Shown piece by piece: positions 3,620 through 56,123 of a DNA stretch of 64,000 nt. The DNA comes from Candidatus Omnitrophota bacterium (GTDB taxonomy: Bacteria; Ratteibacteria; UBA8468; B48-G9; DTJG01): assembly GCA_023819255.1 (NCBI GenBank), contig JAMWBU010000004.1, positions 1,418 through 65,417 of the forward strand. Direction: 5' to 3'. The notes under the pieces are model-generated. The model was not told the DNA's origin and searched no databases. It saw only the letters and a program-made list of their open reading frames with translations. The first letter of the stretch is position 1. Each line of letters begins with the position of its first letter. Both the position numbers and the translations under genes were made by a program.

Positions 3620-3648
3620 ATTTTAAGGAAATGATCATAGGGGGGATT

Positions 3649-8819: not shown

Positions 8820-9176
8820 ATGATTACATTTCTCATAGTTGTGCATTTGATAGTATCGATTCTTTTGATTGTAGCTGTCCTTCTTCAGAGTGGCAAGGGT
8901 TCTTCAATGGCAAACGTGTTTGGTGGCGGTGGCATGGAAACGGTTTTTGGCGCAGAGACGCCTGCCATTATGAATAGAATCACGACAGTGCTGGCTGTGT
9001 TGTTTATGGTGAATTGCATCCTTCTTACAACAATGTCTTTTAAGTATGCCGGATCTTCTGTGATTCAAAGGGAATTGCAAAAAGAATCCTTGCCATCAGA
9101 GCCGGTTGAAAACCCTGCTGGACCGTCAATTCCAACAACACCTTCAACAGATGTGCCGCCGGCACAGAAAAATTAA
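8820..9176 (+). CDS. secG: Preprotein translocase subunit SecG
   Basis: Two TM helices, VLLQSGKG...FGGG linker, classic position after tpiA. Confidence 0.92.
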   Translation: MITFLIVVHLIVSILLIVAVLLQSGKGSSMANVFGGGGMETVFGAETPAIMNRITTVLAVLFMVNCILLTTMSFKYAGSSVIQRELQKESLPSEPVENPAGPSIPTTPSTDVPPAQKN

Positions 9177-10872
9177 TCTTGTTTTTTTGTTTCTGGTGTT
9201 ATTTTTCTGCGTGCCAGGTCGATCGGATGCCACACATGGGGGTTCTGTAGTAATCTCATCGTCTTCAATACCAAAATCATTTAATCCTGTCGTTGCGAAG
9301 GAAACAAGCACGACTTTCATAACAGGATTCATTTTTGAAGGTTTAACTGCCACAGATGGAATTACGCAGCAGGTCAAACCAAACCTTGCGATTTCATGGA
9401 ATATCGATAGTACAGGAAAAATATGGACTTTTTATTTGCGAAAGGATGTTTACTGGAATGATGGAATTCAGTTCACCGCGCGTGACGTAAAGTTCACTTT
9501 TGACCGGTTGATTTTCAATCCTGATATACCCACCAGCAGCAGAGATGTGCTTTCAATCGATGGCAAACCTATAAAGGTTGAGGTTGTTGAAAAATTTGCG
9601 GTAAGGTTTTACTTGCCAGAAAGATTTGCACCATTTTTGAGATTGATGGGACAGGAGATTCTTCCGGAACATAAATATAAACAGATTGTTGATAGAAAAG
9701 CGTTTTCTTTTTCTATGGGATTGGATTCGAAACCAGAAGACATAGTCGGCACAGGTCCTTTCATGCTTGAGGATTTCAGACCAGGGGAATGGGTTATTTT
9801 GAAAAAAAACAAAAGATACTGGAAGAAAGATTCTCAGGGCAATTCACTTCCGTATATTGATAGAATTATTATCCTTACGATCCCTGATCAGAATCTCGCG
9901 CTTTTGAAATTCAAAAAAGGCGAGCTTGATATGATTTCCTTGCGGCCGCAGGATTATCTATTGTTGATGAAAGATAAACCTGCGGATGTGAAGATTTTCA
10001 ATGTTGGGCCTTCTCTTGGTTCTGAATTTCTTGTATTCAATCAAAATCTTGACAGCAGTATTGCTGAATATAAGAAACAATGGTTCAGGAATGTTAAGTT
10101 TAGATGGGCGGTTTCCTGCGCCATTGACAGACAGACAATCATTGATAATATTTTTGCCGGGCTCGGTCATCCTTTATATGGTCCTGTGAACGAATCAGTG
10201 CCTGAATTTTATAATAACCGCATTAGAAAATTTCATTACGACCTGAGAAAAGCGGAAATGTATCTGGCTGAAGCAGGTTTCAAAAAAGGTAGTGATGGAT
10301 TGCTTTATGATAGAGATGGAAATCAGGTTTCCTTTTCTCTAATTACAAATAGCAACAACAGTCAGAGAATAGAACAGGCAAACCTTATAAGGACTGATCT
10401 TGAAAAACTTGGCATGAAAGTGAATTTCCTTCCTGTTGATTTCAATTCCCTTGTAACAAGGATTAACAGTACAAGAGATTGGGAGGCGGTATTACTTGGA
10501 CTCACAGGAAGCGTAGACCCGCATTTTGGGAAAAATGTCTGGGTTACAAGTGGGCATCTTCATCTGTGGAATCCTGGCTCGCCTTCGTCAGTTTATTCGT
10601 GGGAAAAAGAAATTGACAGTATTTTTCAACAGGCAGCAATGATCTTTGAGCCAGAAAAGAGGAAACAGCTTTACGACAGGTGGCAGGAAGTTTTTTGCGA
10701 AAACCAGCCCATGATTTTTACTGCTACATCTGATGTTATTTACGCGGTAAAGGATAAGTTCGGAAATCTTAAACCCACAGTTTATGGTGGACTTTTTCAT
10801 AACATAGAGGAAATTTATATTTTACCCATTGAATCGGGTTCCTCAAAAGCGAGGAAAAAGATCGGGAAATAA
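9151..10872 (+). CDS. ABC transporter substrate-binding protein, family 5 (peptide/oligosaccharide/nickel)
   Basis: Signal-like N-terminus, PKSFNP, PNLAISW, WNDGIQFTARDVKFTF, VGTGPF, LPYID. Start uncertain (9106-9151). Confidence 0.9.
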   Translation: MCRRHRKINLVFLFLVLFFCVPGRSDATHGGSVVISSSSIPKSFNPVVAKETSTTFITGFIFEGLTATDGITQQVKPNLAISWNIDSTGKIWTFYLRKDVYWNDGIQFTARDVKFTFDRLIFNPDIPTSSRDVLSIDGKPIKVEVVEKFAVRFYLPERFAPFLRLMGQEILPEHKYKQIVDRKAFSFSMGLDSKPEDIVGTGPFMLEDFRPGEWVILKKNKRYWKKDSQGNSLPYIDRIIILTIPDQNLALLKFKKGELDMISLRPQDYLLLMKDKPADVKIFNVGPSLGSEFLVFNQNLDSSIAEYKKQWFRNVKFRWAVSCAIDRQTIIDNIFAGLGHPLYGPVNESVPEFYNNRIRKFHYDLRKAEMYLAEAGFKKGSDGLLYDRDGNQVSFSLITNSNNSQRIEQANLIRTDLEKLGMKVNFLPVDFNSLVTRINSTRDWEAVLLGLTGSVDPHFGKNVWVTSGHLHLWNPGSPSSVYSWEKEIDSIFQQAAMIFEPEKRKQLYDRWQEVFCENQPMIFTATSDVIYAVKDKFGNLKPTVYGGLFHNIEEIYILPIESGSSKARKKIGK

Positions 10873-10876
10873 TCCT

Positions 10877-11389
10877 GTGCCGGTGCTGAGAATTGTGTAT
10901 CAGAAGAAACTTGTCGGACGATTTATTTCGGCAAATTACATTGGAAATATCTTTGAAAGATCTATGAGAAGATTGCAGGTTGATTTAGTTTTTTCTCAGG
11001 GCTTCAATCGGAGGGTCAGGATGAGTTTTGGCCCGCCACTTGCTGTTGGAATAGCAGGTAGAAACGAGATAGTCTACATTTATGTAAAAAACACAAATAT
11101 GTCCTGTCAGTTAATAAAGGAAAAACTGAATGAAATCCTTCCAGAAGGTTTAAAAGTTGTTGACTGTGAGTATTTTCAAGATAATAAGAAACCGCCTCTG
11201 ATCAAAAAGGCTATCTATCTTATAAAAATTTCAGAAGATAAGAAGTTTTTTCTTCCACAATCATGGAAGATTGTTTCGCTAAAAGACAATATTATGGAGA
11301 TAGAGATTTCGCTTGAAAAATTCAAACACAAAGAATTGTTTGATATATTCGGTCCTTCTGGTGTTATCGAGCGGTTTTTGATTTTTTGA
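10877..11389 (+). CDS. Radical SAM-linked protein (DUF2344 / TIGR03936-like)
   Basis: RFIS...FERSMRR...FSQGFN-x-R-x-RMSFGPPLAVG...E and LNEILPEGL. Start uncertain. Confidence 0.75.
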   Translation: MPVLRIVYQKKLVGRFISANYIGNIFERSMRRLQVDLVFSQGFNRRVRMSFGPPLAVGIAGRNEIVYIYVKNTNMSCQLIKEKLNEILPEGLKVVDCEYFQDNKKPPLIKKAIYLIKISEDKKFFLPQSWKIVSLKDNIMEIEISLEKFKHKELFDIFGPSGVIERFLIF

Positions 11390-11396
11390 TAAAAAT

Positions 11397-11405
11397 TGAT
11401 ATAAT
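11397..11405 (+). promoter_or_regulatory. Extended -10 promoter element (TGaTATAAT) for the sugar-acid operon
   Basis: tgatataat 11397-11405 with ttgatt at 11378-11383; AGGAG SD before TTG 11459. Confidence 0.5.
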
Positions 11406-11458: not shown

Positions 11459-12241
11459 TTGGCATTGAGATTTAGCATACCAAAAAGGGAAGGTTTTTAT
11501 AAGAAATTTGTTTCTTCGGACAATTCTGACATAAAGTTTATTTCATTCAGTTTTTTTCGCGGTAACTCAGGTCAGTCCATTGTGGAAAACACTGCTCGAG
11601 AAGAATGGTTATGGGTTATTCTTTCAGGAAAGATCAGCATTCAAATAAAAGGTGGCGAGAGTTTTATACTCGAGAGGAAAAGTGTTTTTGTTGATAGACC
11701 TGTTTCGCTATACCTTCCACCAGAGACAGAATATTCCATAAAAATTGAGGTTCTGTCAGAGGTACTGGCTGTTTCAGCTGTTGCAGACAGAAAGTTTTCA
11801 CCGGTTTTGATTTCTGGCAGGGATGTTAAGGTTCAAAGGGCAGGAAAACTTAATTACCAGCGAACAATATTTAATATAGTGCCTCAGGATTTCCCTGCAT
11901 CAAAGATTATCGCTGGAGAGACGATTCATGATAAAGGGCACTGGTCCTGTTTTCCACCGCATAAACATGATGTTGACATGATGCCTTATGAAAGTGAGCA
12001 CGAAGAGATATACTTTTTCAAATGCGAGCCAGAAAGCACGGGGTTTGGAATGATGCGCGTTTATGATGAAAAAAATGATGTTGCTTTTCCAATACTGACG
12101 AATGATGTCATAACGATTCCTGGTGGATATCACCCTGTGGCAGTTATTCCAGAACATACTCTTTATTATTTCTGGGTGCTTGCCGGCAGAAAAAGGCCTT
12201 TTCAACGCCATACGCATCCTGACTATTTACAATACGAATGA
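11459..12241 (+). CDS. iolB: 5-deoxy-glucuronate isomerase IolB / KduI-family cupin
   Basis: GHWSCFPPHKHD, EEIYFF and GYHPV motifs; YYFWVLAG. Confidence 0.85.
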   Translation: MALRFSIPKREGFYKKFVSSDNSDIKFISFSFFRGNSGQSIVENTAREEWLWVILSGKISIQIKGGESFILERKSVFVDRPVSLYLPPETEYSIKIEVLSEVLAVSAVADRKFSPVLISGRDVKVQRAGKLNYQRTIFNIVPQDFPASKIIAGETIHDKGHWSCFPPHKHDVDMMPYESEHEEIYFFKCEPESTGFGMMRVYDEKNDVAFPILTNDVITIPGGYHPVAVIPEHTLYYFWVLAGRKRPFQRHTHPDYLQYE

Positions 12242-12252
12242 AGGAGGAGAAA

Positions 12253-13080
12253 ATGGACAGAAAGATGATGGAACTTTTTTCTCTTGATGGAATGAATGCA
12301 GTCGTTACAGGCGGAGCCGGGGTGCTTGGATTAGGTATATGTCGAGGTCTTGCTCTGGCAGGCGCAAAGGTTGGTATTCTTGATATGAAAAATTTCGACC
12401 AGGCTGCGGAGCAACTTGTTTCAGAAGGGCTAAAAGCGGATGGTTTCTATATTGATGTGTTGAAAAAGGATGAGATTGTCTCCTGCGCTGAAAAGGTTAT
12501 TAAAAAATATGGAAGAATAGACATACTTGTCAATTGTGCTGGTGGAAATCTTAAAGAGGCAACAACATCCTCTGAATTGACTTTTTTTGATCTGCCACTT
12601 GCAGGACTTGAAAAGGTTATTGCACTTAATCTTTTTGGCGGTGCAATATTGCCATCGCAGGTTTTCGGAAAAGAGATGGTAAGAAATAAAGAAGGCGGCT
12701 CTATTATAAACATATCCTCAATGAATGCCTTCAGGCCTTTAACAAAGATTCCAGGTTATTCAGCCGCCAAAGCAGCTGTGAGCAATTTTACTCAATGGCT
12801 CGCTGTTCATTTTGCGATGGAATACAACAAACTGTTAAGGGTTAATGCAATCGCTCCGGGATTCTTTTTGACCCAGCAGAACCGTTATCTTCTTGTGGAT
12901 GAAAACAATAATTTGACCTCAAGGGGGCAGACAATTATCCAGCATACACCAGCGGGTAGATTTGGCGAACCAGAAGATTTGATAGGCGCCTGCATCTGGC
13001 TTGCTTCAAAGGCATCAAAATTTGTCACAGGGGTTGTTGTTCCTGTTGATGGGGGATTTAACGCTTATTCAGGGGTTTAA
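12253..13080 (+). CDS. SDR oxidoreductase, D-mannonate oxidoreductase / fructuronate reductase-like
   Basis: TGGAGVLG, LVNCAGGN, SSMNAFRPLTKIPGYSAAKAAVSNFTQWLAVH, RVNAIAPGFF, VDGGFNAYSGV, matching the SDR-type UxuB family. Confidence 0.85.
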   Translation: MDRKMMELFSLDGMNAVVTGGAGVLGLGICRGLALAGAKVGILDMKNFDQAAEQLVSEGLKADGFYIDVLKKDEIVSCAEKVIKKYGRIDILVNCAGGNLKEATTSSELTFFDLPLAGLEKVIALNLFGGAILPSQVFGKEMVRNKEGGSIINISSMNAFRPLTKIPGYSAAKAAVSNFTQWLAVHFAMEYNKLLRVNAIAPGFFLTQQNRYLLVDENNNLTSRGQTIIQHTPAGRFGEPEDLIGACIWLASKASKFVTGVVVPVDGGFNAYSGV

Positions 13081-13099
13081 TCTAAAAAAGGAGAGAGGA

Positions 13100-14587
13100 A
13101 TGGGAAAAGCGGATATTGCAGTAATCGGGATGGATGTTATGGGAAGGAGTCTTGCTCTCAATATGGAGAGCCGCGGTTACACTGTTGCTGTTTATAACAG
13201 GACAGCCGAGAAGACAAAAATATTCGCAGAGACAATGGCGAAAGGGAAAAACATCATTCCAACTTATGATCTCAAAGAACTTGTTGATGCGCTCAAAAGT
13301 CCAAAAAAAATTATGCTGATGGTCAAGGAGGGCCAGCCTGTTGACAGTTTTATTGAATCTCTTCTGGAATATTTGAAAACAGGCGACCTGATTATAGACG
13401 GTGGAAACTCTTTCTTTAAGGACACAATTCGCAGGAACAAAACACTTGCTGAGAAAGGTATTTTGTTCATTGGAACAGGTGTTTCCGGCGGTGAAGAGGG
13501 TGCGTTAAAGGGGCCAGCAATAATGCCTGGCGGACAGAAACAGGCCTATGACCTCATTGAGAAGATATTTAAGGACATTTCCGCAAAGGCATATGACGGA
13601 GAACCATGTGTTGATTATATGGGACCAGATGGAGCAGGCCATTTTGTCAAGACAATTCATAATGGAATTGAATATGGAGATATGCAACTTATCGGAGAGG
13701 TTGTGTGGTTTTTTACAAATGTCGGAATGAAAGCCGATGAAATCGCAGATATAATGGCAAAATGGAACGAAAAAGACGATATTTTACGCTCCTATCTAAT
13801 TGAAATAACAGCTGATAGCATGAAACAGAAACACCAGGATTCAGACGAATTTCTTGTTGACAGGGTCGCTGATATAACAAGGATGAAAGGAACAGGCACC
13901 TGGACAGTTCAGAGCGCCCTTGAATTGCTTGTGCCGATTCCAACCATTGCGGCTGCTGTTTTTTCCAGAGAAATGTCTCAGGACAAAGATCTACGGCTTT
14001 CTATGGCAAAGAAACTTAAAATTAGTTCGTCCAGATTCAATGGTGATAAAAAAGATATGGTGCAGATTGCGCATGACGCGCTTTACATTGCGAAAATTTC
14101 TTCATATGCGCAAGGTATTGCTCTTTTGCAGGCGGCTTCAAAGACATACAATTTTAATTTGAATATTGGAAGAATTGCGAAAGTGTGGAGAGCAGGATGC
14201 ATCATTCGAGCCCAATTCCTTGATGAAATCACAAAGGCATATGAATCTAATCCGGATCTGCCAAACTTGCTTGCGGCTCCAAAATTTGCAGATTTTGTTG
14301 AGAAAAACACAGGAAAGCTGGTGAGGTTTGTAGAGGTTGCTCATCAGTGTGGAGTGCCGGCTCTTGCAATGTCGGGTTCACTCGACTATATTTTGCAGAT
14401 AACATCGCCTGTTATGCCTTCTGCCCAGGTTTCTGCGCTTCAGCGAGATTATTTTGGCGCTCACGGATATTTTAAAATAGGCGGGACGAGCAAACCTGAA
14501 TTGATGTTGAATAAGGAAGGCAAAGTGAGGGAGTTTCACACCGAGTGGTTGCTTCCTGGAAGACCGGAAAAAGAAATAACAAAATAA
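13100..14587 (+). CDS. gnd: 6-phosphogluconate dehydrogenase, decarboxylating (NADP-type)
   Basis: VYNRT, IIDGGNS, GVSGGEEGA, HFVKTIHNGIEYGDMQ, KGTG, QRDYFGAH. Confidence 0.95.
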   Translation: MGKADIAVIGMDVMGRSLALNMESRGYTVAVYNRTAEKTKIFAETMAKGKNIIPTYDLKELVDALKSPKKIMLMVKEGQPVDSFIESLLEYLKTGDLIIDGGNSFFKDTIRRNKTLAEKGILFIGTGVSGGEEGALKGPAIMPGGQKQAYDLIEKIFKDISAKAYDGEPCVDYMGPDGAGHFVKTIHNGIEYGDMQLIGEVVWFFTNVGMKADEIADIMAKWNEKDDILRSYLIEITADSMKQKHQDSDEFLVDRVADITRMKGTGTWTVQSALELLVPIPTIAAAVFSREMSQDKDLRLSMAKKLKISSSRFNGDKKDMVQIAHDALYIAKISSYAQGIALLQAASKTYNFNLNIGRIAKVWRAGCIIRAQFLDEITKAYESNPDLPNLLAAPKFADFVEKNTGKLVRFVEVAHQCGVPALAMSGSLDYILQITSPVMPSAQVSALQRDYFGAHGYFKIGGTSKPELMLNKEGKVREFHTEWLLPGRPEKEITK

Positions 14588-14670
14588 ACTCTGGCTTGAA
14601 TCACGGGTTTTTGTTAATAGGCGTGCCTCGTGAATAACGTGGGCGTGATAAATTTTTAAGTCAGCAAACA

Positions 14671-15681
14671 ATGGAAGACTTTTTTTTACGGATAAAAGAA
14701 TTCAAAAAGACAAAAGATTATCTTGTCGCAATTGATACAGATGGTTGCGTCGTTGATAATATGAGTGGGAAACAGATTCTTGTTTTTCATCCTCTTTATA
14801 TGGAATTTTATGGATTATGGGATATTGAGTCGTATTTCAGAGAGGTTGCCGAATACTACAATCTTTTCTCAGTTCACAGGGGTTCCAATAGATTTATCGC
14901 TTTAAGGTTAATCCTGAATGTTCTCAAAAACCGAATGGATGCAGGCAGGGTTGTGAAAGAAAACAATTTGAAAATACCTGACTCTGGAATACTTGACGAT
15001 TTCATTGATTTTTGTGAGAAAAATAGTTATGGACTCAGTAATTCTTCTCTCAAGATGTTTGTTGATACAAGGTGTCTGGATTTAGCCGCTCAAAAGACTC
15101 TCGCCTGGAGCAGAGCGGTTAACGAAGTATTGCTGATTATAAACAAGAATTTTATGCCATTTGCGAATGTCAGAGAATCTCTTGAGATTATTAGCAGGGA
15201 AGCTGACATTGTTGTTGTTTCTCAGACGCCATACGATGATTTATTTGAATACTGGCGTTCATATGACATGATAAAATATTTGAAGATTATATGCGGGCAG
15301 GAAACCGGAAGCAAGGTTTTTCAGATTGAAATGCTGAAGAAAATCGGTGGCTATCCTGATGAAAATGTGCTGGTTATAGGAGACAGCTACGGCGATTTTG
15401 AAGCGGCAACAAAAAACAATGTGAAATTTTATCCGGTGGTTCCCGGAAAAGAAGAAAATGCGTGGAAAAAGATGCCTGATGCTTTTGAACTTTTTCTGGG
15501 CGGCAAATACACGGCTGAAAAGCAGAAATTTTTTCTTGAAGAATTTTTAAAAATTTTAAATTCTTCTCCGGCGTGGGAAAATCCAGAATATGACCACTCA
15601 GTTTCATACCGGGAAAAACAGGAACTTAGAAAATCTTTATATAAGAGATTTAACCCTTCAGGGAGATTATTGCTGCTATGA
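14671..15681 (+). CDS. HAD-superfamily hydrolase-like protein
   Basis: Motif I AIDTDGCVVD, motif II VVVSQT, Lys in GSK, motif IV IGDSYGD. Confidence 0.8.
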   Translation: MEDFFLRIKEFKKTKDYLVAIDTDGCVVDNMSGKQILVFHPLYMEFYGLWDIESYFREVAEYYNLFSVHRGSNRFIALRLILNVLKNRMDAGRVVKENNLKIPDSGILDDFIDFCEKNSYGLSNSSLKMFVDTRCLDLAAQKTLAWSRAVNEVLLIINKNFMPFANVRESLEIISREADIVVVSQTPYDDLFEYWRSYDMIKYLKIICGQETGSKVFQIEMLKKIGGYPDENVLVIGDSYGDFEAATKNNVKFYPVVPGKEENAWKKMPDAFELFLGGKYTAEKQKFFLEEFLKILNSSPAWENPEYDHSVSYREKQELRKSLYKRFNPSGRLLLL

Positions 15682-16964
15682 TTATAAAAGAAAAATGGCG
15701 CGTGGATAGTTCCCTGTCGAATACAGAATTTTCATCATTGTTGAATGAAGCGCTTGCCTTGAAATTTTTCGAAAAGCAAAAAATTTTGACGATTATTCCT
15801 GATGGAACGCGCTCGGGTCCCACAGGACTTCTTTTCAGAACAATACTCGATTCACTTTATGGCAGGGCAAGCAAGATTGATTTTATGATAGCGCTTGGCA
15901 CGCACCCAGCCATAGGTGAAAATCAACTTGAAAAACTTCTTGGAATAAGTTGTGCTGACTTGCAGAGCAAGTATCCGGAAACCGCTGTCTATCAACACTG
16001 CTGGGACGATTCTTATATCATCACAGAAATTGGCACGATAACCTCAAAAGAAATTTATGAAATTACAAAGGGATTGCTTGACGAAGATATTCCTGTAACG
16101 GTTAATCGAAACATACTTGATTATGATCAGATAATACTTGCAGGTCCTGTTTTTCCGCACGAAGTTGTTGGTTTTTCTGGCGGCTATAAGTATATTTTTC
16201 CAGGGGTTTCCGGCCCGCATTTTCTTCACAAGTTTCACTGGCTCGGTGCTTTGATTACCAATCCAAAAATAAATGGCACAAAGGATACACCTGTCAGAGA
16301 CGCGATAAATAAAGCGGTTTCCTTTATTAAGACGCCAATAACGCAAATATGCTATGTTGTGAAGGACAAGAATGTTTATGGGTTATATGTGGGTGATAAT
16401 CAGGCGTGGTCTCAGGCTGCGGATCTGTCGGCTCAACTTAATATCAAATATGTTAAAAATAGTTATAAAACTGTTTTATCCATGGCTCCTTTAATGTACG
16501 ATGACATCTGGACAGCCGGGAAGTGCATGTATAAATTAGAGCCTGTTGTTGCTGATGGTGGAACCTTGATCATTTATGCACCCCATATAACCGAGGTTTC
16601 ATACACTCATGGGAAATATATTGAACAGGTGGGATATCATACGCGCGACTATTTTGTGAAACAATGGGAAAAATTCAAGGATTTTCCCGGCGGGATTCTT
16701 GCTCATTCAACCCATGTTAAAGGAATAGGAACTTTCATAAATGGTAAAGAGAATCCAAGAATAAGTGTCTGCCTTGCCACAGGCATAACAAAACAAATGT
16801 GCGAAAAAATTAATCTTGGATATATCAATCCTGGCGCGATTGATATCAATGAGTTTATCAGAAAACCAGACACTCTTGTTGTGAGAGATGCAGGAGAAGT
16901 TCTTTTTAGATTGGAAAATGGAGATGTTCCGGATATTGATGAACTTTACAGGATACACAAATGA
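15678..16964 (+). CDS. LarA-family (nickel-pincer nucleotide) 2-hydroxyacid racemase/epimerase, probably acting on a sugar acid
   Basis: IIPDGTRS, IALGTH, VFPHEVVGFSGGYKYIFPG, FHWLG, DIWTAGK. Confidence 0.85.
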   Translation: MIIKEKWRVDSSLSNTEFSSLLNEALALKFFEKQKILTIIPDGTRSGPTGLLFRTILDSLYGRASKIDFMIALGTHPAIGENQLEKLLGISCADLQSKYPETAVYQHCWDDSYIITEIGTITSKEIYEITKGLLDEDIPVTVNRNILDYDQIILAGPVFPHEVVGFSGGYKYIFPGVSGPHFLHKFHWLGALITNPKINGTKDTPVRDAINKAVSFIKTPITQICYVVKDKNVYGLYVGDNQAWSQAADLSAQLNIKYVKNSYKTVLSMAPLMYDDIWTAGKCMYKLEPVVADGGTLIIYAPHITEVSYTHGKYIEQVGYHTRDYFVKQWEKFKDFPGGILAHSTHVKGIGTFINGKENPRISVCLATGITKQMCEKINLGYINPGAIDINEFIRKPDTLVVRDAGEVLFRLENGDVPDIDELYRIHK

Positions 16965-18325
16965 ACGAGTCATTCAGAAAGCGATATCCTGAATTCAAAG
17001 TTTTTAATAGTTCTATTAGAAGACATGGCGATAAGTATTACTTTGTAGCCGAAAGAGAAAGCAGGTTCTATCTTGTTACTGGCAAAGATTCTTTCAGTTT
17101 TTTTGAAAGAGAAAAAGCCCCTGAGATACTGAAGAAAAGTTTTCCTTTTCTTAAGCCCGCGTGCTCGGGTTGCAAGAATTCTTTTGGTTTTGGAGATAGA
17201 ACAGGATACGCTACAGCAGGTCATATTCGTGCTGCCAGAAAAAGCAATTTTTTCCCGATTTTTGCGCAACAATCGGCAAGAGAACTTGAAAGGACAGGCA
17301 GAAGTTTTCAGCAGGTTCTTGATGATGTGGTATTCTGGTGTTTTGCTGAAGGATGGTCGGATCCTTTCGGCGCAGACGCTGACCACGCAAAGAGTTTTGA
17401 AACCCTGCAGGAGGCAATTTCCGCAGGATATACCTTCTTCACCATTGACCCGTCGGATAAGATTAAGATTTTAGAAAAACAATTTGCCGGAGAAAGCCAT
17501 AAATATGGATTTTATCTCAAACAATATTCTGGAAAGAAAATTTCGATCAAGGGATTTTCTTTTGTTTTTACAGATGATATTATTATTGACCTTGTTTCCA
17601 CATATGGAGACGCTCTTGATTTTGTTCAGCAGTGTTATTTATTTATTTCAGATAAAAGAAAAGATTTTGATTTTGAGGTCTCTGTCGATGAAACAAAAAT
17701 TCCAACAAGCCCTTTTGCTCATGTGTTTGTTGCGATGGAACTTATAAGGAGAAAAATCAGTTTTCAGAGTCTGGCATTGCGTTTTCCGGGAAAATTTGAA
17801 AAGGGAATTGACTACAGGGGAGATATTAAAAATTTTACAGGGGATCTGATAGTTCATAACAACATAAGAAATTATTTTGGACCGTATAAAATTTCCCTGC
17901 ATTCTGGAAGCGATAAGTTCGCAGTATACAGAGAATTCAGGAATATTGTCGCAGATATGTTTCATGTGAAAACATCAGGAACATCATGGATTCAGGCGAT
18001 GAAGACAATTGCCGCGGTTGACAGGAACCTGTTTATTGAATGTATGGCTGTAGCGCTCAAAAATTTTGAAAAAAATTCTGCTTCCTATGAAATTTCTGCT
18101 GATATTTCAAGGATAAACATTGAAAAAATGCAAAGAGAAGATATTGAAAGCATGTTTTCTGACAGCAATATAAGGCAGCTGATTCATATCAGTTATGGAA
18201 GCATTACAGGAGTCGAGAGTCCGCAATTGAAGAACAGTTTTTTCTCTGTAATTGAAAAAAACCTTGAACTTTACACTCAATTTGTTGAAGAACATTTAAA
18301 CAGGCACATTACACTTTTATCATAA
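16961..18325 (+). CDS. uxaE: Tagaturonate/fructuronate epimerase
   Basis: SFGFGDR, FAQQSARE, FGADADH, FTIDPSD, EVSVDE, FEKGIDY, SLHSGSDKF, HVKTSGTSW. Confidence 0.88.
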   Translation: MNESFRKRYPEFKVFNSSIRRHGDKYYFVAERESRFYLVTGKDSFSFFEREKAPEILKKSFPFLKPACSGCKNSFGFGDRTGYATAGHIRAARKSNFFPIFAQQSARELERTGRSFQQVLDDVVFWCFAEGWSDPFGADADHAKSFETLQEAISAGYTFFTIDPSDKIKILEKQFAGESHKYGFYLKQYSGKKISIKGFSFVFTDDIIIDLVSTYGDALDFVQQCYLFISDKRKDFDFEVSVDETKIPTSPFAHVFVAMELIRRKISFQSLALRFPGKFEKGIDYRGDIKNFTGDLIVHNNIRNYFGPYKISLHSGSDKFAVYREFRNIVADMFHVKTSGTSWIQAMKTIAAVDRNLFIECMAVALKNFEKNSASYEISADISRINIEKMQREDIESMFSDSNIRQLIHISYGSITGVESPQLKNSFFSVIEKNLELYTQFVEEHLNRHITLLS

Positions 18326-18339
18326 AAAAAGGAGCCAGG

Positions 18340-20259
18340 ATGAAGAAAAGATTTCCTTATGATACTTTGCCCGTTGATGAAATTAAAACATTGAAGGAAT
18401 TCAGCAATCTTTGTAGAAGAGATGTTCTTACGATGACAACACTTTCAAAATCCGGTCATCCGGGCGGTTCAATGTCCGCCATGGAGATATATAATGTTAT
18501 CTTTCATTTTGCCGCAATAAGTCCTGAAAAAGTGGATGATCCTGAAAGAGATAAGATTGTTATAAGTTTTGGTCATACTTCTCCAGGAGTATACGCTGTT
18601 TTGGGAAGATTGGGGTTTTTTGATCCTGACACAGCGATTGCTTCATTCAGACAGGCTGGAAGCATTTTTGAAGGGCATATCGTGAGAAAAGTCCCTGGAA
18701 TTGACTGGGGCACCGGTAATCTGGGCCAGGGACTTTCCGCAGGTTGCGGATACGCGCTTTTTGACAGAATAAAAAATCGTGAAAGCTACACTTTTGTTTT
18801 GATGAGCGATGGTGAGCAAACTAAGGGACAGGTTGGTGAAGCGCGGCGTTTTGCAATGAAATATAATCTGAATAATCTCAGGGTAATCATTGATTATAAC
18901 AGGATACAGATAAGCGGATGCATTTTTGATATCATGCCGTCAAACATCAAGGAGAATTATCTTGCCGATGGATGGGAAGTAATGGAAACAGATGGACATG
19001 ATATAGCCCGGCTTTATTCAACTATAAAGAAAAGCCTTGAAATTGATAAACCAGTTTGTATAATCGCAAACACGGTTATTGGCAAAGGCGTTTCTTTTAT
19101 GGAAGGGAAATGCGCATATCATGGAAAGACGCTCGGTGAAGAGGACTACATTAAAGCGATCAAGGAACTTGGTTTTGAAAGTGATCTTGAAAAATACAAA
19201 GAGTTGAGAAAGAAAAAGAATTACACATTTCCCGGAAGGAGTTTTGAAATAAAAGTTTCAATAAACAAAGGGAAAAGCCGCACCTATGAACCAGGAACGA
19301 AAATTGATAATCGTACCGCATTTGGAAACGCGCTTCTGGATCTTGGAATAGCCAATAAAGATAACAAAGAAAATCCAATCCTTGTTTTTGATTGTGATCT
19401 TGCAAGCTCAGTAAAGACCGATATATTTGCCAGGGAATTTCCGGATAGATTTTTTCAGTGCGGTGTCCAGGAACACCATGCCGCAACAGTGTCAGGCGCT
19501 TCTTCGTCTGGCGGCGCTGTGAGTTTTTTTGCTGATTTTGGAGTATTCGGGGTTGACGAGACATACAATCAACATCGCTTGAATGACCAGAACTACACAA
19601 ACCTGAAGGTTATATGCACACATCTCGGTCTTGATGTGGGAGAGGATGGGAAAACGCATCAATGTATAGATTACATTGGGCTGTTCAGAAATATTTTTGG
19701 TATGCGCCTTATTATACCCGCCGATCCAAACCAGACAGACAGAGTGATAAGATATGTTGCGTCGCAACCAGGAAATTATTTTGTTGGCATGGGTAGATCG
19801 AACGCACCTATTATTACCACTATTGATGGAAGGCCATTTTTCGCGTCTGATTACGAGTTTGAATACGGACGGGCTGACATTTTAAGAGACGGCAAAAATG
19901 GTTTTATTTACACTATGGGAGCACTTGTGCCAAGGGCAATCGCAATTTCTGACCAGTTGAAGCAGCAGGGTATAGAAATTGGTGTTGTCAATTACAGCTG
20001 CCCTGTGGCGATAGATGAAAATGCGTTGAATATGGGAATTAAAACAGGGCTTGTGATTTCCTATGAAGACCATATTGCTGATTCAGGACTTGGGATGACC
20101 ATTGCTTCTTATATTGCCGAAAAGCAAAAGATTGTTAAGTTTTACAGGCTCGGCATAAGAAAATATGGAAGCTCTGGCACACCCGACGAACTCTATGCAG
20201 AGCACGGTCTGGATGTTGAGACAGTGAAGGATTTAATTAGAAAATTGTTGAAAGTTTGA
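18340..20259 (+). CDS. tkt: Transketolase (single chain)
   Basis: SGHPGGSMS, GNLGQGLS, SDGE...N TPP-binding motif, GVQEH, GEDGKTHQ. Confidence 0.92.
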   Translation: MKKRFPYDTLPVDEIKTLKEFSNLCRRDVLTMTTLSKSGHPGGSMSAMEIYNVIFHFAAISPEKVDDPERDKIVISFGHTSPGVYAVLGRLGFFDPDTAIASFRQAGSIFEGHIVRKVPGIDWGTGNLGQGLSAGCGYALFDRIKNRESYTFVLMSDGEQTKGQVGEARRFAMKYNLNNLRVIIDYNRIQISGCIFDIMPSNIKENYLADGWEVMETDGHDIARLYSTIKKSLEIDKPVCIIANTVIGKGVSFMEGKCAYHGKTLGEEDYIKAIKELGFESDLEKYKELRKKKNYTFPGRSFEIKVSINKGKSRTYEPGTKIDNRTAFGNALLDLGIANKDNKENPILVFDCDLASSVKTDIFAREFPDRFFQCGVQEHHAATVSGASSSGGAVSFFADFGVFGVDETYNQHRLNDQNYTNLKVICTHLGLDVGEDGKTHQCIDYIGLFRNIFGMRLIIPADPNQTDRVIRYVASQPGNYFVGMGRSNAPIITTIDGRPFFASDYEFEYGRADILRDGKNGFIYTMGALVPRAIAISDQLKQQGIEIGVVNYSCPVAIDENALNMGIKTGLVISYEDHIADSGLGMTIASYIAEKQKIVKFYRLGIRKYGSSGTPDELYAEHGLDVETVKDLIRKLLKV

Positions 20260-20288
20260 TCCGCAGACAATTATTCCGGGAGGCAGAA

Positions 20289-20489
20289 ATGAAATGCGTA
20301 AATCGGGATGTTAATATTAAGAATTGTTCGTGCACATACATTTCCTGCGGCAAGCGGGGCATGTGCTGTGAATGTGTAAGCTATCACAGGAAAAATGGCG
20401 AAATTCCGGGATGCTTTTTTCCTCCAGACGCAGAAAAAACTTACGACAGATCAATAGAAAATTTCATACGCGTCTACAGCAAAAGTTAA
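20289..20489 (+). CDS. Small Cys-rich protein (DUF6485-like)
   Basis: MKC...NCSCTYISCGKRGMCCECVSYH...IPGCFF...EKTYDRS; GGAGG SD upstream. Confidence 0.75.
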   Translation: MKCVNRDVNIKNCSCTYISCGKRGMCCECVSYHRKNGEIPGCFFPPDAEKTYDRSIENFIRVYSKS

Positions 20490-21527: not shown

Positions 21528-22577
21528 TTGAAAGCAGCAATTTTTCAGGGTCCGGAAAAAATACAGGTTATGGAGTGGAAAAATCCTGTTTGCGGAGACG
21601 ATGAGATTCTGATAAAAGTTGAGTATTGCGCAATATGCGGCACAGATGTTAGAACTTTTTTCCATGGCCATAATAAGGTTATTCCGCCCGCGATTATCGG
21701 TCATGAAATAACCGGTGAAGTGGTTGAAGCAGGGAAGAATGTTAAAGGACTATTAAAAAAAGGAGACAGAATAACACCTGTAACTTCCATTGGTTGCGGA
21801 TACTGCAGGCTTTGCAGTAAGGGTCTGTACAATCTATGTCCTGACACAAAAGCCCTGGGTTATTTTTATCCTGGAGGTTTTGCCGAATATATGATTATTC
21901 CAGAGGCAGCTGTTGAGCAAAAAGCATGGGTTGTTCTTCCTGATAACATTTCTCTCCTTGAGGGTTCTCTTATAGAGCCATTGTCCTGCGTGATAAATGC
22001 CCAGAACTATCTCGCAATACAACCAGGCGATTCTGTTGTCATCTATGGAGGTGGGCCAATAGGTTTTATGCATGCCATACTTGCGCGAGCATCTGGAGCA
22101 GAAAAAATCGTAATGGTGGATCCCGCATATGAGCGGCTTGAAAAATTTGCTTCACTATTTTCTGATTTAATACTGATAAATCCTTTGAAAGAAAACACTG
22201 TTGCCAAGATTAAAAAGATCACAGATGGTTTTGGCGCTGATGTTATAATTACGGCGTGTCCTGCAAAGCAGGCGCAGGTTGAAGCTTTCCAGATAGCGGC
22301 GCCTCGAAGCAGAATAAGTTTTTTTGGAGGATTGCCAAAAGACGATTCTGTGATCAGTATTGACAGCAATCTCATCCATTATTATGAAATAAGCGTTTTT
22401 GGAGCGTTTGCTTCAAACAGGGTTGATTACCAGAAAGCCGTTGACCTCATATCTTCAAGAAAGATCGATCCTTCCAGATTTATTACAGAAGTTATTCCAT
22501 TAAAAGATATTGATAGAGGAATAAGAATGGTGAAAGGTGGAAGCGTTTTGAAGGTGGTTTTAAAGATACAGGAGTGA
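21528..22577 (+). CDS. Zinc-dependent polyol/sugar dehydrogenase (L-iditol 2-dehydrogenase-like MDR)
   Basis: ICGTD, GHEITG, structural Zn motif CGYCRLC...C, GGGPIG. Confidence 0.85.
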   Translation: MKAAIFQGPEKIQVMEWKNPVCGDDEILIKVEYCAICGTDVRTFFHGHNKVIPPAIIGHEITGEVVEAGKNVKGLLKKGDRITPVTSIGCGYCRLCSKGLYNLCPDTKALGYFYPGGFAEYMIIPEAAVEQKAWVVLPDNISLLEGSLIEPLSCVINAQNYLAIQPGDSVVIYGGGPIGFMHAILARASGAEKIVMVDPAYERLEKFASLFSDLILINPLKENTVAKIKKITDGFGADVIITACPAKQAQVEAFQIAAPRSRISFFGGLPKDDSVISIDSNLIHYYEISVFGAFASNRVDYQKAVDLISSRKIDPSRFITEVIPLKDIDRGIRMVKGGSVLKVVLKIQE

Positions 22578-22580
22578 AGC

Positions 22581-23369
22581 ATGAAACAAATGCTAAAAGG
22601 TATGATTACGATTGTCACCGGCGCCGGACGGGGGCTTGGAGAAGCTTTGAGTTATGGATTTGCGCAGGAGGGCGCGATTGTTTGCCCCTGGGATATTGAT
22701 GAAGAAAATCTTAATAAGACCGCAGGGAAACTTGAAACCATGAAAAGACTCGGGAAAAAAGCAAAGGTTGATATAACTGATGAAAAACAGGTGAGCAAAG
22801 AAATGGAATTGATTGAATCTGAATTTGGAGGAATAGACATTTTAATAGCAAATGCAGGAATACTTTATTCTTATGAAATTACTGAGTTTCCTGAAGACCG
22901 GTGGAGAAAGATCATAGAAGTCAATCTCACAGGATATTTTATATGCGCAAAGTACGCGGCAAGATTGATGAAAAAGAAAAGAAAAGGAGTTATTATCCAG
23001 ATAAACTCCAAATCAGGGAAAAAAGGGAGTTACTGGAACAGCGCATATGCGGCAAGCAAATTCGGTGGGATAGGACTTACTCAGAGTATGGCTCTGGATC
23101 TTGCGCCTTTTGGAATCAGGGTAAACGCAATATGTCCGGGTAATCTTTTTGAAAGTCCGTTATGGCAGAAAAGTTTGTTCCAGCAGTATTCAAAAAAGTG
23201 GGGTATTTCCATTGAAGAAGTAAAAAGAAAATATGTTGAGCAGGTTCCTCTTGGAAGGCCGTGCACTTACAAGGATGTTATAAATGTGGCGGTTTTTCTT
23301 GCGAGCGACCGGGCCGAATATATGACCGGTCAGGCAATCAATGTGACAGGTGGTCAGGAAATGAGATGA
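22581..23369 (+). CDS. srlD: Sorbitol-6-phosphate 2-dehydrogenase-like SDR
   Basis: VNLTGYF, IQINSKSGKKGS, YAASKFGGIGLTQS, GNLFESPLW, TGQAINVTGGQEM. Confidence 0.8.
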   Translation: MKQMLKGMITIVTGAGRGLGEALSYGFAQEGAIVCPWDIDEENLNKTAGKLETMKRLGKKAKVDITDEKQVSKEMELIESEFGGIDILIANAGILYSYEITEFPEDRWRKIIEVNLTGYFICAKYAARLMKKKRKGVIIQINSKSGKKGSYWNSAYAASKFGGIGLTQSMALDLAPFGIRVNAICPGNLFESPLWQKSLFQQYSKKWGISIEEVKRKYVEQVPLGRPCTYKDVINVAVFLASDRAEYMTGQAINVTGGQEMR

Positions 23370-24490
23370 AACAGTCCAGAGATATTATTTTTCTAAATAA
23401 ATGCCTTGCCCTTGCGAAAAATGGTTCAGGTCTTGTCAGCCCAAATCCAATGGTCGGCGCTGTTGTGGTGAAGGGCAATCATATTGCTGGATATGGCTGG
23501 CACAGGGCTTTTGGCCTTCCTCACGCAGAAGTCGAAGCAATTAAAATGGCAGGTGCAGGGGCAAGAAACTCAACATTGTATGTTAATCTTGAGCCCTGTT
23601 GCCATTATGGAAAAACACCCCCGTGTACTGATTTAATCATCAATTCTGGTGTAAAAAAGGTTGTATTCTGTACCTTAGACCCTAATCCCGAAGTCAACGG
23701 GAAAAGTGTGGAGATTTTGAAAAATAATGGTGTTGAGGTTAGATACGGGCTGCTTGAATCAGAAGCTCGAAGATTAAATGCTTTTTATTTTACATTTGTG
23801 GAAAAAAAGAGACCATTTATAAGTTTAAAATGGGCGATGAGTGTTGATGGCAAAATCGCTGACGCATCTGGCATGTCAAAGTGGATTACAACATGTCAAG
23901 CGAGAGAATTTCAAAAACAACTGCGATTTGAGTATGACGCAATTCTTACGGGAAGCGGGACTATCTTAAAAGACAATCCCGTGCTTGATTTCAACGTTCC
24001 CGGTCAAATAAAAAAGCGTCTGGCAAAAAGGAAGAGATTTTACAAGATAATTCTTGACAGCACATTGAAGATAGCCCCTGATGCAAATGTTTTTTCGAAT
24101 GCGAACGCAAATGTTGTCATTTTTGTTGCAAACGGTGTTGTTGAAAGTAAGAAAAAATTTCCTGAAAATGTTGAGATAGTGGAAGTGGAAAGAGAATCAA
24201 ACGGATTGCTTGATATCAGGGCTGTCATTTTTCATCTATATTCAAAAGGAATTGGCAAATTGTTTGTTCAGGGAGGGACAAAGATATTGACATCATTTTA
24301 CAATTATGGACTTTTTGACAATATTTATTTATTTGTGGGCGGCAAGATTATTGGAGGACCTGCCATATATCCGCCTTTTGAAGGAAAGATAATTCCACTG
24401 GAATCTCAATCAGAGATTCATCTGGAAGAAGTGATAAGGATTAAAAACGATGTATTAATGGTTTTCAGAAATGTTCGCCGGGATAATTGA
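23366..24490 (+). CDS. ribD: Diaminohydroxyphosphoribosylaminopyrimidine deaminase / reductase
   Basis: PNPMVGAV, HAE, LEPCCHYGKTPPC, SVDGKIA; ATGA overlap with the upstream SDR. Confidence 0.95.
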   Translation: MKQSRDIIFLNKCLALAKNGSGLVSPNPMVGAVVVKGNHIAGYGWHRAFGLPHAEVEAIKMAGAGARNSTLYVNLEPCCHYGKTPPCTDLIINSGVKKVVFCTLDPNPEVNGKSVEILKNNGVEVRYGLLESEARRLNAFYFTFVEKKRPFISLKWAMSVDGKIADASGMSKWITTCQAREFQKQLRFEYDAILTGSGTILKDNPVLDFNVPGQIKKRLAKRKRFYKIILDSTLKIAPDANVFSNANANVVIFVANGVVESKKKFPENVEIVEVERESNGLLDIRAVIFHLYSKGIGKLFVQGGTKILTSFYNYGLFDNIYLFVGGKIIGGPAIYPPFEGKIIPLESQSEIHLEEVIRIKNDVLMVFRNVRRDN

Positions 24491-25100
24491 AGAAATAGGG
24501 ACTGTTGTTGATGTAAGAAAAAAAGGAAATTCAGTTTTGCTCGGGATAAAGGCAAAAAAGGTTTTTGACGATTTATCCGTCGGGGATAGCATCAGCGTGG
24601 ATGGTGTATGCCTTACGGTTAAAACCATAAAAAGACCAGTTTTCTATACAGATCTTTCACCGGAAACATTGAAGACGACGACTCTCGGAAATGTCAGGAA
24701 CCAGGCTTATGTAAATCTTGAAAGGGCTTTGAAATATGGAACGAGAATCGGCGGACATTTGCTTTCAGGACATATAGATTTTAAGACAACGATAATTTCA
24801 AGAAAGAATCAGGGAAATAATTCAATAATCCTGGTGAGGATACCGATTGAATATTCCTGCTATTTTATAAAGAAAGGTTCTGTGGGTATAGACGGAATTT
24901 CTTTAACTGTTGCTGACTTAACAGGCGAGAATATTGCCATATGGCTTATTCCATATACGATAGACAATACGACGATGAAAAACAAGAAAACCGGAGACCA
25001 GATCAATATTGAAGTTGATATGCTGGCAAAAATCGCAACTGGCACAGAATGCAATGCGCGGAGAACATATGGAAAGGTCAGCAAGGAATCAATCTTTTGA
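24471..25100 (+). CDS. ribE: Riboflavin synthase (alpha chain)
   Basis: MFAGIIEE, GVCLTV, VNLERAL, GGHLLSGHID, GISLTV. Confidence 0.95.
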   Translation: MFAGIIEEIGTVVDVRKKGNSVLLGIKAKKVFDDLSVGDSISVDGVCLTVKTIKRPVFYTDLSPETLKTTTLGNVRNQAYVNLERALKYGTRIGGHLLSGHIDFKTTIISRKNQGNNSIILVRIPIEYSCYFIKKGSVGIDGISLTVADLTGENIAIWLIPYTIDNTTMKNKKTGDQINIEVDMLAKIATGTECNARRTYGKVSKESIF

Positions 25101-26316
25101 AATCAGCAGTGTAGAGGATGCGATCAGGGATCTTAAAAAAGGTAAGTTTATTATTGTGGTTGACGACGCAAAGAGAGAAAACGAGGGAGATCTCGTTTGT
25201 TCTGCAGAGAAGGTTACGCCTGCTGTTATAAATTTTATGACAAAGCATGCCAGGGGATTGATTTGTGTGGCTTTACCCGAAGAAAGGATAAAGCAATTGA
25301 ATCTTTCTCCTATGGTTGAGGACAATACAGCGTTGCATCACACAAATTTTACTGTTTCCGTGGATGCAAAAAATGGGGTTACAACAGGAATATCCGCTTT
25401 TGACAGAGCCAGGACAATAAAGGTTTTAATATCGCCTGACTCAAAGCCCCAGGATCTTGCCCGACCAGGACATATATTTCCTATCAAATCAAGAGACGGT
25501 GGAGTGCTGGTGCGTGCAGGGCATACTGAAGCCGCGGTTGACCTTGCGAAATTGGCCGGTCATTATCCAGCTGGAGTAATATGCGAGATAATGGCTGACG
25601 ATGGTTCGATGGCAAGAATGCCTGAACTCATCAGCATGGCGAAGAAACACGGATTGAAGATCGTTACAATAGCGGATCTGATAAAATACAGAAGGACCAG
25701 AGAAAAACTGGTTGAACGAATATTGTCTGTAGAGCTTCCTACCAGATCTGGCACATTTGATCTGCTTCTTTATAGAGATAAGATTGAAAATAATAATCAT
25801 CTTGCTCTGGTGAAAAAGGTTTCTGACAGTAAAAAGATCCCGCTTGTGAGGGTTCATTCACAGTGTCTCACAGGCGATATTTTTCATTCATTCAGATGTG
25901 ATTGTGGAGAGCAGCTTCATACAGCGCTTTCAATGATTGCAAAAGATGGAGGGGCTTTAATTTACCTGCCGCAGGAAGGAAGGGGAATAGGGCTTGAAGA
26001 TAAGCTTCGCGCGTATAAACTTCAATCAGAAAAGAATCTCGATACCGTTGAAGCCAACTTATATCTTGGTTATCCTGATGATCTCAGGGACTATGGAATA
26101 GGAGCCCAGATTCTTCTGGATTTAGGATTGACCAGTATTCGCCTTCTTACCAATAATCCCAGAAAAATAGTTGGCCTTGAGGGCTATGGCATTGATATTG
26201 TTGAGAGAGTGCCCATTGAAATCGCTCCAAATCCGCATTCACTGAAGTATCTGGAAACAAAAAAGAAAAAGTTAAGACATCTGCTAAAGGTTAATTTTAA
26301 AAAGGGGGAAAAATGA
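25069..26316 (+). CDS. ribBA: DHBP synthase / GTP cyclohydrolase II
   Basis: [23 protein letters not shown]...[18 protein letters not shown]. Confidence 0.96.
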
Positions 26317-56120: not shown

Positions 56121-56123
56121 TCT

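Follow-up and report, generated by a model that had tools for sequence, protein, structure and literature searches.

The 64,000-nt stretch of contig JAMWBU010000004.1 (assembly GCA_023819255.1) of a Candidatus Omnitrophota bacterium, referred to in its whole length as the window, carries at positions 11459-20489 of the + strand an operon of eight co-oriented and nearly gapless genes, as delineated by calls of open reading frames (ORFs) and family scans. An earlier note on this DNA had described them as tightly packed genes of named families, and this description was borne out. Judging from the encoded proteins, the operon most likely turns pectin sugar acids into pentose phosphates by way of a nickel-cofactor epimerase and 6-phosphogluconate dehydrogenase (Gnd), and the core of this reading, a route that leads from keto-uronates of hexuronate origin to pentose phosphates without a dehydratase, is given a probability of about 0.65.

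The first gene (11459-12241) encodes a cupin of the KduI/IolB family (PF04962, 212 bits) and is followed by a short-chain dehydrogenase/reductase (SDR; 12238-13080) of the fructuronate reductase or D-mannonate oxidoreductase type (UxuB/UxaD-like; NF006132, 351 bits against a cut-off of 281) and by a decarboxylating, NADP-dependent Gnd (13100-14587; NF006765, 592 against 413; TIGR00873, 566 against 427). The central pair comprises a predicted phosphoryl-transfer enzyme of the HAD superfamily with a large helical cap (14671-15681; HAD_2, 27.6 bits against 23.8) and a GntE-like protein of the LarA superfamily, predicted to be a nickel-pincer-nucleotide (NPN) 2-epimerase of hexonate or 6-phosphohexonate (15678-16964; Lar_N PF09861, 76 bits against 23.3). 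The tagaturonate/fructuronate epimerase UxaE (16961-18325; PF16257, 460 bits), a full-length transketolase (Tkt; 18340-20259; NF004556, 939 bits against 575) and a Cys-rich DUF6485 mini-protein of 77 aa with 8 Cys (20256-20489; PF20095, 37.9 bits), translationally coupled to tkt, complete the set. For six of the eight genes family membership lies above curated cut-offs or follows from a match to solved, named enzymes.

The successive junctions measure -4, 19, 83, -4, -4, 14 and -4 bp. Gnd starts at the ATG at 13100, which is preceded by a GGAG-type ribosome-binding site; the listed ORF had begun at 13001. A promoter-like site on the + strand at 11378-11405, namely TTGATT, 16 nt and TATAAT with an upstream TG, lies 54 bp 5' of the first gene as a consensus match only, in a region where 42 such sites were found against 32.8 +/- 4.9 expected. 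The scan for terminators was of no help, with 11 sites where 9.2 were expected, and the 3' limit of the operon is set by a convergent phospholipase-D-like (PLD) gene.

In the proposed route a keto-uronate would first be formed, in the window's clade probably from galacturonate or glucuronate by the KduI/IolB-like cupin. UxaE would then interconvert tagaturonate and fructuronate, the SDR would reduce fructuronate to D-mannonate, and the GntE-like nickel-pincer enzyme would invert the configuration at C2, with phosphorylation at C6 taking place before or after by a kinase presumably encoded outside the operon. Gnd would decarboxylate the resulting 6-phosphogluconate to ribulose-5-phosphate (Ru5P), from which the route would continue to transketolase, its end point in the window's operon. 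The earlier note had arrived at the same path from 6-phosphogluconate through Gnd to Tkt, and this core is supported because the family assignments, the synteny across phyla, the near-absence of UxuA, UxaA and Zwf and the presence of the NPN genes all fit it. Comparative support for a putative module leading from keto-uronate through mannonate and 6-phosphogluconate to Ru5P is strong.

Enzymes of the proposed route and the gene content of the genome

Search of the 2.02-Mb assembly (78 contigs, 92.8% complete) gave zero matches to UxaC, UxuA and the UxaA-type dehydratase, and likewise to glucose-6-phosphate dehydrogenase (Zwf) and the SKI-type gluconokinase (GntK). Since UxaC, UxuA, UxaA and SKI-type GntK are unmatched genome-wide, none of them lies in the window, and the designation "dehydratase-free" holds for the genome. 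The genes for the NPN cofactor are encoded, with LarB at 279 bits (cut-off 175) on contig C50, LarC at 316 bits on C4 and LarE at 315 bits (cut-off 150) on C41. A second transketolase, split, was found on contig C43.

A profile built from 13 homologues of the LarA-family protein was compared with the PDB, and the best match was 4NAR, the GntE2 protein of Thermotoga maritima (E 7e-84, 285 bits), with 2YJG, 5HUQ and 6D6Z as further matches. Residues D42, R45, H76, H161, K171, H187 and K282 are invariant in the 13 homologues. With reference to the NPN-binding and catalytic residues listed in PMC7583248, R45, K171 and H187 correspond by alignment to the NPN-binding R75, K184 and H200 of LarA, and D42, H76, H161 and K282 to the catalytic D72, H108, H174 and K298. 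D-gluconate 2-epimerases of the GntE type (LarAH groups 18-20) are recognised by E-V/S after the catalytic His, a Trp in helix 11 and a Gly before the catalytic Lys (PMC7583248). All three signatures are present in the window's protein as E162-V163, W278 and G281-K282, each of them invariant, and the E-V pair recurs in 74 of the 77 LarA ORFs from related loci.

The only curated model of a hexonate epimerase, NPN_18_hexonate (NF052594, group 18), was missed at 184 bits against a cut-off of 500. Helix 14, which is directed at the tail of the substrate (PMC7583248), reads S-T-H-V-K in the window's protein and V-I-N-V-R in GntE2, so that His stands at the place of the small residue N348; the S-T-H-V-K stretch was found in 51 of the 77 ORFs, with 18 ORFs falling outside the search pattern. 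Because the group-18 cut-off is missed widely and the helix-14 stretch differs, the LarA homologue appears to represent a separate clade of the GntE-like branch, outside any named LarAH group. Its more polar and more basic tail pocket would be compatible with a phosphorylated substrate, and we lean slightly towards 6-phosphomannonate as that substrate; T. maritima GntE2 has been reported to epimerise D-mannonate to D-gluconate, the Km being 17 mM (PMC7583248). A second, canonical LarA is encoded on contig C41 (loci L003 and L092; 412 bits against the lactate racemase cut-off of 460), where it stands between an Amidohydro_2 gene and a URO-D-like gene and about 4 kb from LarE. The 335-aa gene beside this second LarA was considered as a paralogue of the HAD protein and rejected, as it is the Amidohydro_2 gene.

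UxaE matches PF16257 over profile positions 59-475 and finds the PDB entries 9LHW, named "Tagaturonate/fructuronate epimerase" (347 bits), and 6ILA (258 bits). The SDR scores 165 and 162 bits on the KduD models, far under their cut-offs of 339 and 369, and its second-best model is gluconate 5-dehydrogenase (NF006070, 187 bits, under the cut-off of 279). The cupin stays under the cut-off of the IolB equivalog TIGR04378 (185.7 bits against 205), and its top PDB match is the uncharacterised "IolB-like protein" 2QJV (102 bits). Chemically, aldose-ketose isomerisation of glucuronate or galacturonate by an IolB-type enzyme is the UxaC reaction. KduI of Escherichia coli has been reported to aid the breakdown of hexuronates (PMC3578941).

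Conservation across related loci and genomes

A pattern scan of species-representative genomes yielded 478 loci with a LarA relative, of which the best 80, those most like the window, were analysed; the sample is tilted towards the window's kin because only these were kept. Among the 80 loci, tblastn with the window's proteins (SDR counted at >=40% identity) located Gnd in 48, HAD in 39, SDR in 35, UxaE in 25, the cupin in 16, Tkt in 9 and DUF6485 in 6, which upholds the conservation of the cluster around its LarA homologue. When counting was confined to the 55 loci whose upstream sequence reached 5 kb or more, Gnd was found in 44, SDR in 31, HAD in 30 and UxaE in 22, and eight loci held none of these four. 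The immediate 5' neighbour of the LarA homologue is HAD in 28 of the 80 loci, Gnd in 21 and SDR in 1; in 30, none of the eight query genes stands there.

Seven to eight close relatives (L005-L012) share the complete eight-gene order. Tkt is confined to loci within or near the window's clade, and DUF6485 invariably follows it. In three loci (L025, L026 and L048) the SDR is replaced by a long-chain enzyme of the mannitol dehydrogenase family. Gnd adjoins the LarA homologue even where other pathway genes are lacking nearby, and in the Atribacteria-labelled loci Gnd-LarA is the sole pair left together. Loci of another kind (L051, L052 and L054, also L044, L045 and L050) hold the same LarA clade without Gnd, SDR and HAD; there LarA has a D-2-hydroxyacid dehydrogenase gene after it and mostly a GHMP kinase gene facing it, beside type II secretion or pilus genes.

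The Thermotoga-type route of myo-inositol breakdown (IolG, IolM, IolN, IolO) yields D-tagaturonate as the product of IolO. In locus L075, genes for IolM (559 bits, cut-off 450), IolN (298, cut-off 245) and an IolO-like epimerase (230, under the cut-off of 300) lie directly 5' of UxaE-SDR-PFK-like-HAD-Gnd-LarA, and IolM, IolN and IolO-like genes likewise lie directly 5' of UxaE-SDR-...-Gnd-LarA in L081 and L069. From this arrangement the module of L075 would be fed by an inositol-derived keto-uronate, and since inositol genes are joined to the module in all three loci, the module could take its keto-uronate from any source. In the window's own genome tblastn left IolN unmatched and gave a weak match to the IolO-like protein (28% identity), and neither the inositol genes nor the cluster kinases of the other loci found orthologues there.

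Phyletic distribution was assessed in the 50 genomes holding the loci (36 for UxaA and Eda), all of them based on metagenome-assembled genomes (MAGs). UxaC exceeded its cut-off in 15 of the 50 and in none of the 7 of the window's clade, or 0 of 8 when the window's own genome is counted. UxuA did so in 4 of 50, with one full-length strong match, and a UxaA-type dehydratase was detected in 1 of 36. SKI-type GntK was above its cut-off in 0 of 50. Zwf was present in 12 of 50 genomes overall and in 3 of the 35 genomes G001-G035, and Eda in 16 of 36, four of the eight genomes of the window's clade among them. The LarA clade is tightly tied to Gnd in mostly Zwf-less genomes, which belong to mostly uncultivated lineages across phyla.

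The HAD protein and the phosphorylation step

The HAD protein is matched by HAD_2 only in Pfam and by zero NCBIfam models, and scans against both collections revealed no homology to the known families of sugar-acid kinases (SKI-type GntK, FGGY GntK), although a kinase-like action is possible all the same. Its family, of about 347 aa, is highly conserved, with a mean column identity of 65% over 20 homologues. The four motifs of the HAD superfamily, D22-T-D24-G, S184/T186, K215 and G237-D238...D242, are invariant in these 20, as are many residues of the cap, several Arg and Lys among them. An AF2 model (pLDDT 88.7) was compared with known structures by Foldseek and VIA-align. The nearest folds are phosphatases of subfamily IA (Z 17.7 to 16), led by 4EX7 (VIA Z 17.7, rmsd 2.5 over 196 residues), and the BT2127 pyrophosphatase follows at Z 15.2; beta-phosphoglucomutase 5OLW and the HAD-fold kinase PtkA 6F2X are also among the neighbours, both at Z 14.3. 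The comparison pointed to generic subfamily-IA enzymes and to no specific function. Named homologues are all annotated as "HAD family hydrolase", the ESM Atlas returned "HAD family" clusters only, and an exhaustive profile search collected 323 cluster representatives at E <= 1e-30, mostly relatives of about 295 aa.

It can be presumed from these motifs and from the synteny that the HAD protein is a phosphoryl-transfer enzyme dedicated to the module, its most likely activity being that of a phosphatase or mutase on a phosphorylated hexonate. The earlier note had placed it in the slot of the gluconate kinase. Stated as a mechanism, an aspartyl-phosphate formed from a donor such as PPi, acetyl-phosphate or ATP would be passed to O6 of mannonate or gluconate, which would render the operon self-sufficient. 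We consider this unlikely, and the evidence on it is drawn largely from the kinases that accompany the module in other loci.

Kinase co-occurrence was counted by ORF clustering in 53 loci that had 5 kb or more of upstream sequence, after L047, L076, L080 and L082 had been dropped (LarA ORF unclustered). An FGGY kinase stands between SDR and Gnd/LarA in 4 of the 53, none of which has HAD, and the HAD family is missing from the whole genomes of these four (G010, G016, G022, G050) and present in 34 of the 50 genomes overall. Close orthologues (>=70% identity) of this slot FGGY kinase were found in no genomes but three that lack HAD, namely G010, G022 and G016, the last being the source of the query. 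Such mutual exclusion is what a kinase slot shared by the two proteins would produce, and the absence of SKI-type GntK above cut-off from the 50 genomes, the privacy of the highly conserved HAD family to these clusters and the presence of phosphate-transferring HAD-fold enzymes (5OLW, 6F2X) among its structural neighbours agree with it. The exclusion is, however, confined to four loci from few lineages, the motifs are of the phosphatase/mutase type without a kinase signature, the top structural neighbours are phosphatases, and HAD is found alongside bona fide kinases: a PPi-PFK-like gene occurs in 14 of the 53 loci with HAD present in 14 of 14, and PfkB occurs in 2, both with HAD. Moreover, clusters L015, L029 and L047 have neither HAD nor kinase, so that an unlinked kinase must be possible. 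The kinase-slot claim is backed by the exclusion pattern, the single line of evidence that speaks for it, and opposed by the motifs and by the company of genuine kinases.

Fused forms could have linked HAD to a kinase, and a word search of proteins of 589-2000 aa found none. In four longer proteins from the exhaustive profile search (P0277, P0304, P0336, P0274), a domain belonging to the wider HAD family is joined to another HAD domain, an N-terminal region of about 690 aa, a membrane region or a P-loop-like part at the C-terminus; none of these extra parts was alignable by eye to a cluster kinase.

The PPi-PFK-like gene belongs to the NF010675 subfamily (336 bits against a cut-off of 273) and sits between Gnd (or SDR) and HAD; the loci concerned are L016, L019, L020, L022, L023, L027, L034-L037, L041, L046, L049, L059 and L075. 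It may be an enzyme of the pentose-phosphate side rather than a hexonate kinase, and we take its possible role to be that of a sedoheptulose-7-phosphate kinase. The window's own genome encodes two PFKs, of which one is a PPi-PFK of the Thermotogales type, and five FGGY kinases, namely XylB, RhaB, AraB and two unassigned ones (162 and 157 bits against the gluconokinase cut-off of 649). At 54726-57500 of the window, an AraA-like isomerase (weak match) is directly followed by one of the unassigned FGGY kinases, and the two look like an aldose isomerase/ketose kinase pair, not a hexonate kinase.

Several observations weigh against the dehydratase-free route and are reckoned in its probability. A kinase gene is absent from the operon and none could be assigned in the genome, and a phosphatase-type enzyme would have no obvious place in a kinase-dependent catabolic route. 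The single match to Eda is on contig C69 and adjoins a KDG-kinase-like PfkB, with which it forms a kdgK-eda pair whose surroundings held housekeeping genes only and no dehydratase. The earlier note's statement that uxaC, uxuA/uxaA, kdgK and eda are lacking therefore holds for the cluster and the window and fails genome-wide for kdgK and eda; it had taken canonical uxaC, uxuA, kdgK and eda elsewhere as a sign against its route, and half of that set, kdgK and eda, is present whereas uxaC, uxuA and uxaA were not found. In addition, the cupin and UxaC occur together in 5 of the 8 other genomes whose locus has the cupin (G008, G014, G015, G030, G032), the remaining 3 being without UxaC. Gene absences rest on MAGs, with completeness given for the window's own genome only, so that single absences are weak evidence, but the overall pattern is not, and the loci sampled are the 80 of 478 most like the window.

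The role of the cupin has to be judged in this light. The earlier note's assignment of the uronate isomerase slot to it agrees with the lack of UxaC from all eight genomes of the window's clade and is at odds with the pairing of cupin and UxaC elsewhere. Conversion of galacturonate or glucuronate to the keto-uronate by the cupin fits the window's clade because no UxaC and no other source of keto-uronate was found there, and we rate it at a little less than an even chance. The live alternative is isomerisation of 5-keto-4-deoxyuronate, the ordinary role of KduI, which is possible because KdgK-Eda is encoded in the same genome and an oligogalacturonate-lyase-like gene lies in the window.

The same two facts would suit a wider dissolution of the cluster into separate modules, in which the cupin and SDR act as KduI and KduD and convert 5-keto-4-deoxyuronate (DKI) to 2-keto-3-deoxygluconate (KDG) for the KdgK-Eda of C69, Gnd and Tkt serve as housekeeping enzymes near gap-pgk-tpi, and LarA, HAD and UxaE are otherwise employed. 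The genes of central metabolism just 5' of the operon, the PPi-PFK-like gene as a possible pentose-phosphate-related sugar-phosphate kinase in 16 related clusters and the coexistence of cupin and UxaC in five genomes could be read likewise. Nevertheless, the SDR passes the mannonate oxidoreductase cut-off and remains far under those of KduD, and it accompanies UxaE, LarA and Gnd in many loci devoid of the cupin. Gnd stays next to LarA without the rest of the pathway in mostly Zwf-less genomes, stop/start overlaps join the operon genes into one translational unit, and Eda was detected in just half of the genomes of the window's clade. Such a separation is accordingly held to be decidedly unlikely, and the single dehydratase-free route is retained as the preferred reading.

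Surroundings of the operon and comparison with known systems

On the 5' side the operon is preceded by gap, pgk, tpi, secG, a lone family-5 solute-binding protein and a DUF2344 gene, with pectin-type genes farther upstream. The latter set (2-5685) comprises a GH106-like protein (2-1456, - strand), a beta-propeller with similarity to oligogalacturonate lyase (1519-2595, - strand), a DUF1559/N-methyl prepilin-like protein (2846-3619) and a 684-aa right-handed beta-helix protein (3631-5685). The solute-binding protein, with NikA/Opp similarity at 150 bits (under 393), and the radical-SAM-associated DUF2344 gene (together 9106-11389) stay 5' of the operon in 13 loci and 11 loci of the 80, respectively; the binding protein may take nickel or an oligosaccharide. 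On the 3' side, a Zn-dependent dehydrogenase (Zn-ADH) is followed by an SDR exceeding the sorbitol-6-phosphate dehydrogenase cut-off (340 against 307; 21528-23369 for both), then by an ordinary riboflavin operon (ribD, ribE, ribBA, ribH) and nusB (23261-27202).

The Zn-ADH (21528-22577) raises the question of whether the module serves other 5-keto-hexonates and hexonates, with L-galactonate, L-gluconate or L-idonate entering by dehydrogenation through this nearby enzyme. Its best NCBIfam model is IolM at 196 bits (cut-off 450), it has a weak match to L-idonate 5-dehydrogenase, and similar genes recur downstream of the operon in related loci (L007-L009, L056); the runner-up model of the operon's SDR is a gluconate 5-dehydrogenase. 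In Luteolibacter, conversion of L-gluconate through 5-keto-L-gluconate to D-tagaturonate has been described, with LguG reported to catalyse the same reaction, to D-tagaturonate, as IolO (PMC12632266). This entry is quite improbable in the window: the convergent PLD gene separates the Zn-ADH from the operon, the Zn-ADH exceeds no equivalog cut-off, IolN and a convincing IolO are missing from the tblastn results for the genome, and the pectin-related genes suggest uronates. A reverse, biosynthetic direction, in which Ru5P and CO2 would lead through 6-phosphogluconate and mannonate to uronate with HAD as the committed phosphatase, was set aside as very improbable, since the pectin context and the inositol-fed loci favour catabolism.

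Among the known systems, the closest are the proposals already in print for T. maritima and Lactobacillus suebicus, and the earlier note's claim of an undescribed pathway variant has to be divided accordingly: the concept is not new, while novelty can be claimed for the LarA clade, for its tie to Gnd in lineages poor in Zwf, for its private HAD partner and for the entry without UxaC. A literature search for the genes encoding mannonate kinase and the 6-phosphomannonate epimerase found only PMC6978723, and nothing was found that describes a LarA-Gnd-UxaE cluster or uronate use in Omnitrophota/Ratteibacteria, most subscription journals lying outside the coverage of both searches. Overall, the link from uronates to pentose phosphates of the Thermotoga/Lactobacillus type appears to be widespread, with 478 loci, the 80 examined representing mostly uncultivated and mostly Zwf-less lineages, in which it may be the chief reason for keeping Gnd. 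The analysis puts forward gene candidates for two activities that were without genes as of 2020, the phosphorylation of mannonate and the 2-epimerisation of 6-phosphomannonate, and singles out a conserved HAD family to which known pathway schemes give no role. The engineering of pectin fermentation, too, calls for a route from galacturonate to Ru5P that is redox-neutral and dehydratase-free (PMC6978723).

In the hybrid isomerase-phosphoketolase pathway of L. suebicus, galacturonate is converted through tagaturonate, fructuronate, mannonate, 6-phosphomannonate and 6-phosphogluconate to Ru5P, the last step by Gnd (PMC6978723). The mannonate kinase and the 6-phosphomannonate 2-epimerase are documented there in cell extracts only, and their genes were not identified (PMC6978723). 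Both that route and the one proposed for the window dispense with a dehydratase and a KDPG (2-keto-3-deoxy-6-phosphogluconate) aldolase; L. suebicus, in contrast, relies on UxaC and GntK-like kinases, and its route terminates in phosphoketolase, where the window's would end in transketolase. A bolder proposal, which we regard as a long shot, is that the LarA clade supplies the missing gene for the 6-phosphomannonate 2-epimerase of L. suebicus and that the HAD protein is a phosphotransferase replacing the hexonate kinase, so that the eight genes would suffice by themselves with no classical kinase or dehydratase. If true, it would reveal a nickel-pincer enzyme acting on a phosphorylated sugar acid together with a new kind of phosphotransferase.

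With the Ashwell isomerase pathway (UxaC-UxaB-UxaA or UxuB-UxuA-KdgK-Eda) the proposed route has in common its upper steps, formation of a keto-uronate and reduction to a hexonate, and KdgK-Eda is also encoded in the window's genome. The Ashwell pathway then dehydrates and cleaves the hexonate, whereas the window's route would epimerise and decarboxylate it, in keeping with a genome in which UxaC, UxuA and UxaA were not found. The Thermotoga-type inositol route touches the module in related loci, where its genes precede it, and differs from the window in the IolN and IolO-like results given above.

The pectin/galacturonate operon aldH-pelB-gnd-uxaRED-gntEK of T. maritima is induced by pectin, and diversion of mannonate to the pentose phosphate pathway via GntE has been proposed for this organism (PMC3750489), with enzymatic support in PMC7583248. 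Its locus and the window's operon have Gnd, UxaE, an SDR-type fructuronate reductase (UxaD) and a LarA-family C2 epimerase in common, and GntE2 (LarAH20), the best match of the window's LarA homologue, carries the same group 18-20 signatures. The window's operon differs in being without GntK and UxaC, in place of which HAD, an IolB-like cupin, Tkt and DUF6485 are found, and its LarA clade is distinct from GntE2, as its bit scores on 4NAR and on the group-18 model indicate. T. maritima also retains UxuA-KdgK-KdgA, of which UxuA, like UxaA, has no match in the window's genome. The operon can thus be regarded as the counterpart, in uncultivated lineages, of the routes of T. maritima and L. suebicus.

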